Position numbers and translations under genes: made by a program. The notes below the pieces were generated by a model, which had not been told where the DNA came from, ran no database searches, and saw nothing but the letters and a program-made list of their open reading frames with translations. Positions 2,830 through 12,246 of a stretch of DNA of 24,000 bases are shown here, in pieces; positions within the stretch are counted from its first letter, which is position 1; the number at the start of each line of letters is the position of its first letter. This DNA is from Gordonia jinhuaensis (GTDB lineage: Bacteria > Actinomycetota > Actinomycetes > Mycobacteriales > Mycobacteriaceae), in NCBI RefSeq assembly GCF_014639795.1, contig NZ_BMGC01000009.1, positions 129,298 through 153,297 on the forward strand, written 5' to 3'.

Positions 2830-2856
2830 ATTCGCGGCCGCTCGTTGTGGGCCGTT

Positions 2857-2927
2857 GCAAAAATCGGCCCCGTGAGCGTCGCCGAGGGAAGATTGCCCTC
2901 CGCGGCCACCACGGGGCTGATTTTTGC
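2857..2927 (+). repeat. Structured hairpin repeat, copy 1 (about 71 nt)
   Basis: GCAAAAATCGGCCCCGTG...CGCCGAGGGAAGATTGCCCTCCGCG...CACGGGGCTGATTTTTGC. 18-bp basal stem (one G.T) plus an inner stem around loop AAGATTG. Lies 28 nt after the stop of the TRIC-family gene. Confidence 0.85.
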
Positions 2928-2979
2928 CACCTCACCCGGTGAGGCGAACCGTCCGGGCCCCGGCGGCGTCCAAGAAGGC

Positions 2980-3825
2980 GTGACCCCCAACCCTGACGGC
3001 GTGTTCTCGCGCGACGATCTGCGGCGCCGACACGGCGTCGACGACAACGAGCTGCGCAGGATGCTGCGCTCCGGCGACCTGCAGCGGCTGCGCTCGGGCT
3101 GGTTCGCGACCAGCGATGCCGATCCGGTGGTCGGTGAGGCGGTCCGGCGCGGCGGGGCGTTGAGCTGTGTCTCGGCGTTGCGTCATCACGGGTTGTGGAC
3201 CCCACCTGGCTACTCCGACGACGAGCTGCACATCCGGGGGAGCAGACACGCGACGACGGTCGCGCGCGGGCACCGCACGCAGTGGTGTCAGGCGCCTGGT
3301 CGGGTCGGATCCGTCCAGGCGGCCGTCGATTCGGTGCCGGTGGCCCTCGCGTGTGCGGTGCGCTGCCTGCCCGCGGAGTACTGGGTGGCGGCATGCGATT
3401 CGGCGATGAACCGGCTCGGCTGGACCATCCCCGACCTGCAGGAAGGGATGGGCACGGTGACTGCGGGGATGCGGGCGCTGATGGCGCGCTGCGACGGCCG
3501 GTCGGAATCGGGGACCGAGTCGGTCGCGCGTTACCGGCTCACCTCGGACGGATATGACGTGGTGGTCCAGCCCTACATCGAGGGAGTCGGGCGCGTGGAC
3601 CTCAGGATCGGCAGGCTGCTGATCGAGTGCGACAGCAAAGCCCATCACACCAGCAGGGAGAACTACCGCAACGATCGGCGCCGAGACCGGCAGTCACTGA
3701 TCGACGGATGGTTGTACATGCGGCTGATCTACGAGGACGTGATGTACAGGTGGGAGAGCGTGGTGTCTGACATCGCCGCCGTCACCAGGGCCGACCGGCA
3801 TCGGATGCGCCGGCGGCAAGCGTAG
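2980..3825 (+). CDS. DUF559/Vsr-like endonuclease-fold domain protein (hypothetical)
   Basis: The N-terminal motif VFSRDDLRRRHGVDDNELRRMLRSGDLQRLRSGWFAT and the C-terminal LLIECDSKAHH...DRRRDRQSLIDGWLYMRLIYEDV resemble the common actinobacterial DUF559 family. The track ORF starts at 2845 but that part reads through repeat copy 1. Start taken as GTG 2980 (alternative GTG 3001); it is uncertain. Confidence 0.6.
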   Translation: MTPNPDGVFSRDDLRRRHGVDDNELRRMLRSGDLQRLRSGWFATSDADPVVGEAVRRGGALSCVSALRHHGLWTPPGYSDDELHIRGSRHATTVARGHRTQWCQAPGRVGSVQAAVDSVPVALACAVRCLPAEYWVAACDSAMNRLGWTIPDLQEGMGTVTAGMRALMARCDGRSESGTESVARYRLTSDGYDVVVQPYIEGVGRVDLRIGRLLIECDSKAHHTSRENYRNDRRRDRQSLIDGWLYMRLIYEDVMYRWESVVSDIAAVTRADRHRMRRRQA

Positions 3826-3843
3826 GTGCCGCATGCAGTCGGT

Positions 3844-3916
3844 GGCAGAAATCGGCCCCCTGAGCGCCGCCGAGGGAAGATTGCCCTCGGCGTCCACCAC
3901 GGGGCTGATTTTTGCC
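3844..3916 (+). repeat. Structured hairpin repeat, copy 2 (73 nt)
   Basis: GGCAGAAATCGGCCCCCTG...CGCCGAGGGAAGATTGCCCTCGGCG...CACGGGGCTGATTTTTGCC. Same orientation as copy 1, with a perfect inner stem. Lies 19 nt after the stop of the DUF559-like gene. Confidence 0.85.
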
Positions 3917-3938
3917 ATCTGATCTCCGCCATCAGGTG

Positions 3939-3964
3939 GGAACCTGGTGCGCGTCGGAGGGGTT
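3939..3964 (+). promoter_or_regulatory. ECF (SigE/SigH-type) promoter-like motif GGAAC-N18-GTT upstream of mprA
   Basis: GGAACC at 3939-3944 and GTT at 3962-3964. The spacing is compatible with mycobacterial GGAAY(A)-N16-17-(c)GTT promoters. The two elements also form an inverted repeat (GGAACC/GGTTCC). Confidence 0.3.
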
Positions 3965-6518: not shown

Positions 6519-8111
6519 ATGACACCGAGCGGGTCTGAGTCTGGCGGGTCGCAGGGCGACCAGGGTGAGGGCCACGGGCGTTCCGGTGAGCCCCACGAGG
6601 GTGCTCACAGCTCGGATTCGTCCCCCTCGAATTCGCCCACTTTGAATTCACCACAGTCGCACGGCCAGGGGCCCTATCCCCAGACCCCGTACCCGCCGTC
6701 GTCCTACCAGCAATCCCCGTATCCGAACTCGCCGTATCAGCAGTCGTCCTACGGCCAGCAGGGGTCGACGTCGCAGTTCCCCGCCTACGGTTATCAACCC
6801 GGCCAGCAGGGCGACCAGTCCGGCCAGTCGGGCTACGGATACTCGACCACTCCGCAGCAGGGCTTCGGCGGTCATGGCGGCACGGGCAACGGCGGCTACG
6901 GCGGCACTCAACCAGGCGGCGGTCAACCAGGCGGCACTCAACCAGGCAGCGGCCACCCCGGCGAGGGCGATTTCGGTGACGGGGGCTCGAGAGGCACCAA
7001 GTCCGGCAAGTCGCGGGCCCCGCTGATCGTCGGACTGGTCGCAGCCTGTGCGGTCGCCGGCGTGATCGGTGGTCTCGTGGGCGCCAACATCAACGACAAC
7101 GACAACTCGTCGAACTCATCCTCACGTGGATCGAATGTGGTCCTCGGCGGCGACGTCGATTCCAGCCAGCCCGCCGCGGCGCCTGCGGGATCGGTCCAGG
7201 CGGTGGCCTCGAAGGTGCTGCCGTCGGTGGTCTCCATCGACGTGCGTTCGGCCTCGGCTGCCGGTGAGGGTTCGGGTGTGGTGCTCTCGCCCGACGGCGT
7301 GATCCTCACCAACAACCACGTGGTGTCCGGTGCGGGCAGCAACGCCCAGATCGTCGTGAGCTTCAGCGACGGCAGCCGTTCGCCGGCCACGGTCGAGGGC
7401 ACCGACCCGATCTCCGACATCGCCGTGATCAAGGTCGACAAGTCCGGACTCACCCCCATCGACATCGGCACCTCGGGGAACCTCGCCGTGGGTCAGAGCG
7501 TCGTGGCCGTGGGCTCACCCCTCGGACTCGCCGGGACGGTCACCAGCGGCATCATCAGCGCGCTGAATCGACCCGTCTCGTCGCAGGGCGAGGAGACGGG
7601 GACGGCCTCGGTGATCGACGCGATTCAGACAGATGCGGCGATCAATCCGGGCAACTCCGGCGGCGCTCTGGTCAACATGAACGGTGCGCTGATAGGAATC
7701 AACACAGCGATCGCGAGCCTGGGCGGCGACCAATCCTCGCAGTCGGGCAGCATCGGCCTCGGTTTCGCCATTCCGGTCGACCAGGCGATGCGCGTCGCCA
7801 AGGAGCTTGAGTCAACAGGCAAGGCGACGCAGGCGGGACTGGGCGTGTCGGTGCGGGCCAACGGCTCGGCGGCCGACAACGGTGCGGTGATCACCGACGT
7901 GACCGCCGGTGGTGCCGCGGCGAAGGCCGGTATCCCGCGCGGTGCGGTGGTCACCCGCGTCGACGATCGCGTGATCACCAACGGCGATGCACTCGTGGCC
8001 GCGATCCGGTCGCACGCACCGGGCGACCAGGTGTCGATCACCTACACCACCGGCGGTCAGACCAAGACCGTGAAAGTCACCCTGGACACACTCGAAGTCG
8101 GAGGACGATGA
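6519..8111 (+). CDS. pepD: HtrA-family membrane serine protease PepD (trypsin-like domain + PDZ)
   Basis: Catalytic triad contexts TNNHVV (His), DIAVIKV (Asp) and GNSGGALV (Ser). C-terminal PDZ-like region (ITDVTAGGAAAKAGIPRGAVVTRVDD). Single TM helix APLIVGLVAACAVAGVIGGLVGA. Start taken as ATG 6519 (GAGGA 4 nt upstream); GTG 6483 is also possible. Confidence 0.88.
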   Translation: MTPSGSESGGSQGDQGEGHGRSGEPHEGAHSSDSSPSNSPTLNSPQSHGQGPYPQTPYPPSSYQQSPYPNSPYQQSSYGQQGSTSQFPAYGYQPGQQGDQSGQSGYGYSTTPQQGFGGHGGTGNGGYGGTQPGGGQPGGTQPGSGHPGEGDFGDGGSRGTKSGKSRAPLIVGLVAACAVAGVIGGLVGANINDNDNSSNSSSRGSNVVLGGDVDSSQPAAAPAGSVQAVASKVLPSVVSIDVRSASAAGEGSGVVLSPDGVILTNNHVVSGAGSNAQIVVSFSDGSRSPATVEGTDPISDIAVIKVDKSGLTPIDIGTSGNLAVGQSVVAVGSPLGLAGTVTSGIISALNRPVSSQGEETGTASVIDAIQTDAAINPGNSGGALVNMNGALIGINTAIASLGGDQSSQSGSIGLGFAIPVDQAMRVAKELESTGKATQAGLGVSVRANGSAADNGAVITDVTAGGAAAKAGIPRGAVVTRVDDRVITNGDALVAAIRSHAPGDQVSITYTTGGQTKTVKVTLDTLEVGGR

Positions 8112-9044: not shown

Positions 9045-9441
9045 GTTGTCACAGGCTGTTTGTCTAGGACCTTTGTGTTTGCCTGGAGTTAACCTCGCGT
9101 AATTTACTATCGCGTAGATCGGACCGCTGCCCGGCGCGGAGCGTGTCGTTTACCTGACCGACTCGCGGTGGACCTAACTGTTGTCGCCAGTGCTTGCGAC
9201 AGCTAACGTACCGCGATGCAGGACCCGTTCTCTCGAACCGACGAGCGGGTTCCCGTCTCACGCGGACCGCGATCGGTGTGCGTGAAGCGATTTGGGGGTT
9301 TAGGGGAATTTACGTGCCGGTAACACGCATGATCCATGCCTGTTAATTCGCCCGGTGGAGGATTTCGCGGAGCCAACAAGTCATCCCGAGCTCGCTTTTC
9401 GGTGGAGCGCGGTTACACAGCAATCCTGTGAGAGGGAACGA

Positions 9442-10053
9442 ATGAGCAAGTTCAGCAAGGTGGGTCTGCGTCGCGTCGTTGGCGCGAGCGCGGTCGCGGC
9501 CGCCGCAGCCGTGGGCCTGGCCAGCATGGGAGCGGGCAACGCTGCAGCTGCGTCGCTGCCCAATGGCAGCAAGGTCACGGTGGGTGTCGACGGCACCAAG
9601 ATCGTCCTGAAGCGCACCGGCGAGTCGGCGTACTCGATCCCGTCCCTGGAGTCCAACGGCGCCGGCCGTACCGCTCTGCTGTCGGGCCACTACACCGCGT
9701 CCGCGCCTAAGGGCACTGACGTGTCGTTGTCGGTGGGTGTCGCGGTCGGTTGCCAGGTGGACATCAGCGGTCTCTCGAGCAACTTTGGCGCCAGTGTCAA
9801 CCTGCTCGCTCTGACAGGCAACGCCTCCTTGGGCTTGACTGCTCCGATCACGCCCGGTCAAGCCGGCACGGCAAGCGTTGATGGCGCGGAAGCCGCCAAG
9901 GGTGGCACCGCGACAGTTGACGTCAGCGACTACCAGATCTACCTGCCCACCTGCGCCGGTTACGCACAGGCGCGTACCTTCATCACGGCAACGGTCACCG
10001 GTAACTACTACGTGACGTCCACTCTGTGGGGCGCACCGTTCAGCTTGACCTAA
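9442..10053 (+). CDS. MspA-family mycomembrane porin, paralogue 1
   Basis: 203 aa. Signal peptide MSKFSKVGLRRVVGASAVAAAAAVGLASMGAGNAAA. The mature part is beta-rich, with VGCQVD (compare MspA LGYQIGFP) and C-terminal CAGYAQARTFITATV...LWGAPFSLT (compare MspA GGVLLRPFARLIAS...TYGEPWNMN). GAGAGGGAA RBS before ATG 9442. The track ORF start at 9355 would bury the signal peptide. Confidence 0.72.
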   Translation: MSKFSKVGLRRVVGASAVAAAAAVGLASMGAGNAAAASLPNGSKVTVGVDGTKIVLKRTGESAYSIPSLESNGAGRTALLSGHYTASAPKGTDVSLSVGVAVGCQVDISGLSSNFGASVNLLALTGNASLGLTAPITPGQAGTASVDGAEAAKGGTATVDVSDYQIYLPTCAGYAQARTFITATVTGNYYVTSTLWGAPFSLT

Positions 10054-10131: not shown

Positions 10132-10863
10132 ATGAAGAAGACCACTGCGCGTCGCGCAACCGCTGCTGTCGGGCTCGCCGGCGCAGCGGCCGTCACCGCC
10201 GTGAGCCTCGGCGCCGGCAACGCCGCGGCCTGGGGCAACACTGCCTCGGTACCCGACGCGACCCTCACGAAGACCGTGAGCGGCCTTACCGTCAAGGCTA
10301 AGCTGTTCGACCAGTCCGTCACCTACGCTCGTCCGATCACCACCCTGCCGACCCTGCGCGACGTGTGGGCCTCGGGCAAGATCAGCGTTGAGGTCTCCGG
10401 GGGAGACGTCAAGGGTGGCAAGATCGCATCCGGTTATCTCGTCGGTTGCCAGGTTAACTTCGGTGCCAGCGCGGAGGGCGATGGCGGCTACGACGTATCC
10501 CCCGAGACCACCGGTGGTGGAGTGTCGGGCGGTGAGTCTGTCCCTGTCACCAACACGGGCAACTACACCGGCTCGCCGAGCGCGTCCGGCAAGGCTGGCT
10601 TCACCCTCGGCCCCGGCACCACCAAAAAGGTGTTCCTGATCGATAACACCAATGGTGATCTGAGCCCCGATGCCGACAACTACCACAGCTACGGCAACCC
10701 GTTCACCGGGAACAAGGCTGGAATTGCCTACAGTCAGCAAGAGTTCAGTTACGACGGCTGCGCCGGCTACGCACAGGCCAAGGCCTTCGTGACGGTCAAG
10801 GTGACCACCGACAACACCACCGCGAATCTCACCTTCTACAGCAAGCCCTTCAGCCTCGGCTGA
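10132..10863 (+). CDS. MspA-family mycomembrane porin, paralogue 2
   Basis: 243 aa. Signal peptide ending GAGNAAA as in paralogue 1. LRDVWASGKISVEVSG (compare MspA TREWFHSGRAKYIVAG), SGYLVGCQVNFG, and CAGYAQAKAFVTVKV...FYSKPFSLG. AAGGGGA RBS 3 nt upstream. Confidence 0.78.
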   Translation: MKKTTARRATAAVGLAGAAAVTAVSLGAGNAAAWGNTASVPDATLTKTVSGLTVKAKLFDQSVTYARPITTLPTLRDVWASGKISVEVSGGDVKGGKIASGYLVGCQVNFGASAEGDGGYDVSPETTGGGVSGGESVPVTNTGNYTGSPSASGKAGFTLGPGTTKKVFLIDNTNGDLSPDADNYHSYGNPFTGNKAGIAYSQQEFSYDGCAGYAQAKAFVTVKVTTDNTTANLTFYSKPFSLG

Positions 10864-12089: not shown

Positions 12090-12134
12090 TTCAGTCATCC
12101 GCCTGATCAAAGGTCACTGACTGAGCTCGACAAC

Positions 12135-12174
12135 ACGGTGGGCGTGATCCTCTGATGAGGGTCACGCCCACCGT
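12135..12174. terminator. Bidirectional hairpin between convergent genes
   Basis: 18-bp stem ACGGTGGGCGTGATCCTC / GAGGGTCACGCCCACCGT (one G.T) with loop TGAT. A second short hairpin GAGGCCG-GACTTT-CGGCCTC at 12229-12248 abuts the ABC gene stop. Confidence 0.65.
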
Positions 12175-12246
12175 CGTGTCGGGGTGCGCGCGCGAGGTCG
12201 GCCACGCGGAATTGTGCTCTCGATGTAGGAGGCCGGACTTTCGGCC

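Follow-up and report, generated by a model that had tools for sequence, protein, structure and literature searches.

The window analysed here, the whole stretch of 24,000 nucleotides from Gordonia jinhuaensis, is Mycobacteriales DNA of 66% GC, and its gene order (CobW, L31, L32, TRIC, MprA, MprB, PepD, MoaB2 ... MscL ... GalU, MoeA) resembles that of the Rv0981–Rv0994 region of M. tuberculosis. It contains three copies of a hairpin repeat, each about 75 nt long with near-perfect pairing, which lie where the original prediction had placed them: copy 1 at 2855–2929 on the forward strand, with its apex GAGGGAAGATTGCCCTC at 2884–2900; copy 2 at 3842–3918, also forward, with the apex at 3872–3888; and copy 3 at 18396–18472 on the reverse strand, with the apex at 18426–18442. 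They score 75.5, 73.9 and 79.5 bits, respectively, with our covariance model R1. Copies 1 and 2 lie upstream and downstream of a gene at 2980–3825 on the forward strand, for which they would be the boundary palindromes, and copy 3 stands alone, with mscL on one side of it and an esterase gene on the other, both genes being on the reverse strand. The genes directly upstream of the three copies are, by Pfam, the ones that had been named from the sequence (TRIC/Gly_transporter, a DUF559-like gene and mscL), and the gaps from stop codon to hairpin are 27, 18 and 51 nt.

At the apex of all three copies a 5-bp inner stem, GAGGG/CCCTC, encloses the 7-nt loop AAGATTG, and the alignment gives the expected common centre CGCCGAGGGAAGATTGCCCTC(C/G)GCG exactly in 3/3 copies. 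We considered whether a 5-bp stem with a 7-nt loop might be like a tRNA anticodon arm, and rejected this reading as neither strand has a U at position 33. The basal stem GCAAAA...TTTTGC, thought to be common to all copies, is found in copies 1 and 3; copy 2 opens with GCAGAA and does keep its pairing by means of G.U wobbles, as had been proposed. A hand-checked alignment of copies 1 and 3 also bears out the three double compensatory changes reported between them (T-A to C-G, G-C to T-A and G-C to C-G). The arms of copies 1 and 2 are 88% identical. On the 3′ side of each main hairpin there is another, small one with an unrelated sequence, formed by CCTCACC/GGTGAGG at 2930–2950, by CATCTGAT/ATCAGGTG at 3915–3939 and, on the reverse strand, by TGTAC/GTACA at about 18365–18395.

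Several other repeats were seen in the window. An unrelated and nearly perfect 25-bp palindrome at 12121–12188 (−50.5 kcal/mol) has esterase and ABC-transporter genes converging on it, and is probably just a bidirectional terminator of the ordinary kind. There are in-frame tandem repeats in the PepD/HtrA-like gene (6900–6960; about four copies of a 15-nt unit like CGGCGGTCAACCAGG) and in the CobW-like gene (476–518; 9-nt unit CTGCTGCCG). Two apparent tandem MspA-porin paralogues lie at 9355–10053 and 10132–10863, with a 76% identical direct repeat in this region (9951–9999 and 10758–10806), and the gap between MoaB2 and MspA is shorter in syntenic relatives than in the window.

Folding and covariation of the hairpins

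Each copy folds into one long hairpin, with free energies of −50.6, −52.2 and −56.0 kcal/mol for copies 1, 2 and 3. The corresponding z-scores are −7.8 for the first two and −8.4 for the third, and none of 200 shuffles folds equally well. Covariation was measured on an alignment of 16 copies from 10 genomes, where 85.5% of cells are paired compared to 69% for shuffles and 38–49% for slid controls. Double changes are found at 13 of the 19 stem pairs, and the covariation score is 0.435 compared to 0.16, a value reached by none of 500 shuffles. The outer arms are almost wholly different between genomes, yet are still paired. Covariation this strong across the 16 copies agrees with the earlier claim that selection acts on structure, and the view that the hairpin is maintained by selection, or restored by some mechanism, is well supported by the alignment. 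Selection for termination alone could keep the pairing.

The same claim had placed this selection at the level of RNA, which the alignment does not support: G.U pairs are about as frequent on one strand as on its complement (59 vs 55). Likewise, when folding energies of the sense and antisense strands are compared, neither is consistently better, giving no RNA-level signal. As had been suspected, the element is not a named RNA family, in that Rfam has no match at the gathering threshold; a search at E up to 10 returned just generic hairpin and miRNA models, at no more than 28 bits compared to thresholds of 46–168.

The enclosed gene and the TRIC–mprA site

The gene between copies 1 and 2 encodes, by Pfam, a fusion of an AbiEi_4 winged-helix domain with a Vsr/DUF559-type (REase_MTES_1575) nuclease. 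A sequence search of the PDB gave a marginal DUF559 match and nothing else, so that a fold search was required. For the AlphaFold model (pLDDT 89), Foldseek matched the N-terminus to AbiEi antitoxin (PDB ID: 6y8q), and the C-terminus to the catalytic domain of I-Bth0305I (PDB ID: 3r3p; TM 0.74, probability 1.0) and also to DUF559 (PDB ID: 3hrl), with Holliday-junction resolvases and TnsA as weak matches. Judged from this predicted structure, the closest solved fold to the nuclease domain would be that of I-Bth0305I, a homing endonuclease. Residues D217, E226, D228, H233 and D242 are invariant among 28 homologues. The nuclease family comprises 1,206 clusters (50% identity) at E ≤1e-10, whose class annotators have labelled variously as AbiEi antitoxin, DUF559 or very-short-patch-repair endonuclease, and our search for a phage homologue gave none that was convincing.

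The database call for this gene (P0001; 310 aa, 2893–3825) begins at a TTG within the hairpin loop (AAGA-TTG, 2893). We prefer the GTG at 2980 as the probable start, on account of the homologue alignment and of a conserved promoter-like motif, GAAC-N17-CGTC, on the forward strand at 2946–2970, which ends 9 nt before the GTG and which we take to be of the ECF-sigma type from the general ECF promoter consensus. When both strands of the whole window are searched this motif occurs twice. In the form GGAAC(C)-N17-CGTC(C/T)AAG it comes after the upstream hairpin and before the start codon, both in the window and at three homologous loci of one Gordonia metagenome-assembled genome (MAG; L134, L140 and L141), and a weaker form is present at L133, L139 and L135. 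The start codon lies 9–12 nt past the CGTC in the Gordonia and Williamsia members, and the cassette mRNA would be leaderless or nearly so. In each cassette the upstream hairpin (copy 1 in the window) precedes the motif, which would place it outside the nuclease gene's own mRNA. Several homologues are annotated into the downstream hairpin, and the 27 C-terminal amino acids of one protein (P0044) match the hairpin of a lone copy (L058). Annotated gene starts and ends near these hairpins are unreliable.

We compared this site with six Williamsia-like contigs (L147–L152) that show the same CobW-L31-L32-TRIC-MprA-MprB-PepD synteny, with MprA 91–93% and TRIC about 55% identical to those of the window. 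In 6/6 of these contigs only 68–118 nt separate the TRIC stop from the mprA start, and none has a long hairpin between the two genes. Homology in the conserved mprA promoter region picks up again at about 3939; the left junction falls somewhere in 2757–2854, and is imprecise as the C-termini of TRIC differ. Since all six syntenic sites are short and free of hairpins, we conclude that a unit of about 1.1 kb (2830–3938, forward), in which the two hairpins enclose the promoter-like motif and the nuclease gene, was inserted here and brought both hairpins with it. TRIC–mprA is the single site tested for presence and absence, in genomes distant from that of the window, and owing to this distance the comparison yields neither a sharp junction nor a defined target duplication; none is visible at the imprecise junctions. 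We also sought an empty site through the TRIC orthologues of Gordonia sp. PKS22-38 and G. soli, where synteny is not conserved. The window TRIC is itself about 19 residues longer at its C-terminus than those of its syntenic relatives (223 aa compared to 204–206 aa), and as this extension (2757–2829) starts where homology to the empty-site DNA ends, the TRIC frame may run into inserted DNA.

Hairpins at homologous genes and lone copies

Flanking hairpins were sought at eleven homologous genes, those of the window, L041, L133, L134, L135, L139, L140, L141, L144, L145 and L146, using the covariance model R1 together with direct folding. A long hairpin lies on at least one side of 10 of the 11, and on both sides of most (the remaining locus, L144, is ambiguous). 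For instance, Williamsia limnetica (L139) has hairpins on both sides, as does G. soli (L133), where the arms are 89% alike and the apex is GAGGGCA(T/C)ATTCCCCTC. In an Actinomycetes MAG of the OH_CB series (L041) the gene, whose protein is 45% identical to that of the window, lies on the opposite strand, flanked on one side by a single hairpin and on the other by a tandem triplet. The triplet (2359–2673) has a 114-nt period, of which the hairpin takes up 81 nt and the spacer 33 nt, and its units are 92% alike, with the single-base apex variants CGCGGGAAGATTGCCCTC and GAGGGGAGATTGCCCTC. L134, L140 and L141 are three paralogues of one Gordonia MAG, some with decayed outer stems; G. defluvii (L135) has long hairpins with a different apex; and two genes of Tsukamurella tyrosinosolvens (L145 and L146; 35–37% identity) each have a hairpin sequence of their own, the two flanking hairpins of L146 being mutually inverted.

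The cassettes have a different context at every locus, in each case among housekeeping genes, and the nuclease genes have about 40-fold more long palindromes beside them than expected (by a strict count of ungapped palindromes, 6 of the 16 long ones in 196 kb fall in the 3 kb or so of DNA that flanks these genes). No near-identical cassettes were seen at different sites, and the G. defluvii protein P0049 has one context in every case. The cassette genes of L135 (G. defluvii) and L140 (Gordonia MAG) lie on opposite sides of the same DEAD/ResIII helicase gene; they are not orthologous (51% identity), and the shared neighbourhood may be coincidence or preference. Taken with the empty site, this layout makes it very probable that a nuclease cassette was inserted and that the hairpins are the repeats at its boundaries.

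The cassettes of the window and L041 have the same 17-nt apex, despite proteins that share 45% and arms that share about 40% identity, which argues for a ligand that would be sequence-specific; the obvious candidate is the cassette's own winged-helix/nuclease protein. An alternative reading is that GAGGG-N7-CCCTC is a duplex operator by which the winged-helix domain autoregulates the gene, as in AbiEi, with the stem and the lone copies as by-products. The AbiEi match of the N-terminal domain, half-sites that are one helical turn apart and the position of the upstream hairpin directly upstream of the promoter-like motif all fit this idea. We nevertheless consider it highly improbable, as an operator needs neither a covarying outer stem of 30 bp nor a second copy downstream, and it would account neither for lone copies at the 3′ ends of unrelated genes nor for the Tsukamurella hairpins, which vary at the apex and are conserved in the arms.

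We searched for the apex elsewhere by an exact scan for GAGGGAAGATTGCCCTC in 185,579 species genomes (one each), which gave 64 loci, about 50 of them chance matches in unrelated and mostly lower-GC genomes. Real copies, within long hairpins, occur only in Gordonia and in the “Actinomycetes bacterium OH_CB*” MAGs, at 1–2 per genome. Three more came from a metagenome scan for the 17-mer; two matches on viral contigs were rejected as chance matches in low-GC DNA, and a blastn search of plasmids found no match to the window hairpin. As the exact 17-mer was the search key, the apex conservation seen in lone copies results in part from the search itself. Nearly all copies start 0–50 nt past a stop codon, and the neighbours of the lone ones include genes for malic enzyme, 6PGD, argininosuccinate synthase, PhoU, IdeR, PGM, a DsbA-like protein, an aminotransferase, a NUDIX protein and acyl-CoA carboxylase.

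The arms of the hairpins (apex excluded) are more alike within a genome than between genomes, with mean identities of 0.585 and 0.393. This includes the comparison of lone with cassette copies, where identities are 0.72–0.73 for copy 3 against copies 1 and 2, 0.58–0.62 for L034 against L134 and 0.55–0.61 for L007 against L041. A similar picture is found in T. tyrosinosolvens, which has at least seven further copies of the L145-type hairpin (about eight in total), again with conserved arms and a variable apex. These fill gaps between convergent genes or come after stop codons, for instance at corA/SUFU, SDR/rpsO, DoxX/efeB, VOC/thpD and pirin/glucosidase. R1 gave no further copies when about 130 kb of flanking DNA, taken without selection, was searched, and the hairpins thus do not form a REP family of high copy number.

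The original prediction had proposed a REP- or MITE-like mobile palindrome as one of two alternatives, the other being a dedicated 3′-end RNA element, and had suggested a search for an associated RAYT/TnpA-REP-type gene elsewhere in the genome. The first alternative is much nearer to the evidence than the second, and an associated gene does exist, between copies 1 and 2, though it is not a RAYT. Like REP/REPIN elements with their RAYT, the hairpins are palindromic extragenic repeats dispersed after genes, with a single associated gene flanked by repeat copies and a repeat sequence that is genome-specific and varies with the version of that gene. They differ in that the gene encodes a winged-helix and Vsr/PD-(D/E)xK-type nuclease rather than a Y1 HUH transposase, the hairpins are 70–80 nt long compared to 20–40 nt, there are about ten copies or fewer per genome compared to tens to hundreds, and flanking copies are mostly direct rather than inverted. 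A stricter version of the idea, in which classical REP/REPIN or MITE elements owe their movement to a RAYT (Y1 HUH) or a DDE transposase from another part of the genome and tend to land around the nuclease gene, would account for dispersed extragenic palindromes of genome-specific sequence, and for the tandem array of three at L041. We give it very little chance. Neither the 24-kb window nor the flanks that were retrieved contain a transposase, RAYT or parent insertion sequence, the copy number is low, and neither a GTAG-type REP head nor terminal inverted repeats distinct from the stem nor a target duplication was seen; it also leaves the repeated and specific pairing with one nuclease family across genera unexplained.

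Orientation, termination and known systems

The loop had been predicted to keep the same sense relative to the upstream gene. This is true of the window copies, which amount to two independent cases, as the neighbour on the other side is co-directional for all three and a single unit includes both copy 1 and copy 2. It does not extend beyond the window. Among lone copies with co-directional neighbours the loop is in the sense orientation in copy 3, L035 and L057 and antisense in L015 and L058; L046 lies between divergent genes and several other lone copies between convergent ones, and the cassette hairpins of L041 and L134 are antisense to the nuclease gene. With orientation mixed, equal G.U counts and no strand bias in folding, the argument for RNA-level selection fails outside the window.

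It is nevertheless possible to see the hairpins primarily as RNA 3′-end elements, either intrinsic bidirectional terminators or 3′ stabilisers, which are selected at the RNA level and merely insulate the nuclease gene. The placement of nearly all copies 0–50 nt past a stop codon, often between convergent genes, is what would be expected, as are GC-rich stems with a base (GCAAAAAUC...GAUUUUUGC in the window) that gives a U-run on both strands, and a simple scan finds a terminator-like site at 2903–2929. There is also a precedent in mycobacteria, the tuberculosis Rho-independent terminator (TRIT; Gardner et al. 2011, PMC3152330), a conserved palindrome at gene ends that is reported from Mycobacterium alone, with 147 copies in M. 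tuberculosis, and whose overlap with stop codons is at about −8. Compared by its description, TRIT is the nearest published analogue in Mycobacteriales: it too is a conserved palindrome, sits very close to the ends of genes in one genus of this order and is mostly bidirectional, and its authors suspected a binding factor (PMC3152330). It differs in that no associated gene is reported.

Even so, we regard a primarily RNA-level explanation as unlikely. It does not explain why the paired hairpins of a cassette are 88–89% identical while the family otherwise diverges freely, why the hairpin family accompanies one gene family to unrelated sites, why the 17-nt apex with its asymmetric loop, which a terminator does not require, is conserved, or why the empty site is free of hairpins. 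Orientation and G.U pairs are both unbiased. Many members, moreover, have a weak U-tract or none (for instance L057, L058 and L046); in the window copies UUUUU is paired within the base of the stem, and many family members have three U or fewer, where a typical intrinsic terminator has 7–9 nt of U-tract directly after its hairpin. Termination as an additional role is a different matter, and one that we consider probable, given that the hairpins are strong and symmetric, have an A-tract/U-tract base and are placed after stop codons. As bidirectional terminators or insulators they would make an insertion less costly, which would also help to keep the arms paired.

Overall, the explanation that we favour, with a probability of roughly 60%, is that the hairpins are the boundary palindromes of an inserted and probably selfish nuclease-gene cassette, together with a lone derivative of them (copy 3). 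The cassette protein would recognise the apex GAGGG-N7-CCCTC at the ends of the cassette, either as duplex or as an extruded hairpin, and the nuclease would promote the spread or maintenance of the unit in a homing-like or transposition-like manner or by recombination between hairpins. That the nuclease itself moves the hairpins is a tentative suggestion, for which the odds are somewhat against. The movement might be homing-like repair, excision and integration, recombination between hairpins, or a passive spread in which the hairpins serve as insulating terminators. A simple strand-specific mechanism is not easily squared with the loop orientation, which varies relative to the gene between cassettes, or with the inverted flanks of L146. 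The lone copies could be scars of gene loss by recombination of the direct repeats, similar to solo LTRs, or hairpins that were moved without the gene, similar to REPs. A tblastn search beside the lone copies, copy 3 included, found no nuclease homologue or gene remnant, which leaves the scar model without direct support. When the site of the L058 lone copy was compared with L141 and L142, the neighbouring genes differed.

Several known systems resemble this cassette in part. EDxHD/Vsr-like homing endonuclease genes such as I-Bth0305I provide the closest solved match to the nuclease fold, and the catalytic residues are invariant; as with free-standing homing endonuclease genes, the element is a single gene of small size and selfish appearance, which some genomes have and others lack at an otherwise conserved intergenic site. 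I-Bth0305I differs in that it resides in a phage group I intron, and we know of no homing endonuclease gene bounded by matched long palindromes or accompanied by dispersed lone repeats. In integrons, too, single genes bounded by imperfect hairpin-forming palindromes (attC) are found in varied insertion places. However, the GTTRRRY core sites are absent here (the ends being GCAAAA...TTTTGC), there is no integrase or cassette array nearby, and attC has conserved ends with a variable centre whereas the Gordonia-type hairpin is conserved at its apex. The likeness to solo LTRs lies in near-identical direct repeats that flank a coding region with single copies elsewhere, an analogy that concerns the origin of the lone copies only and involves no reverse transcription.

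No earlier description turned up when we searched the literature on DUF559, MTES_1575, I-Bth0305I and Vsr for a connection with flanking palindromes. It is possible, if on the doubtful side of even, that we are looking at an apparently undescribed class of selfish element of Mycobacteriales, a winged-helix and Vsr/EDxHD nuclease cassette whose palindromes would be recognised by the nuclease, and which would insert after stop codons and seed lone palindromes used as bidirectional terminators. There are few cases of dispersed palindromes tied to a specific gene, REP with RAYT being the main one, and here a genomic signature like that of REP/RAYT is seen with a different class of enzyme in at least three genera. 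If the hairpins on either side of the gene are indeed acted on by its nuclease, a widespread orphan family would gain a function, and the protein with its DNA hairpin would form a compact pair that is directly testable. Canonical terminators are scarce in high-GC actinobacteria, and on the same condition the cassettes would provide one route by which conserved terminator-like palindromes arise in these genomes. Should the selfish class prove real, the REP-like and TRIT-like repeats of actinobacteria would have an origin independent of RAYT.
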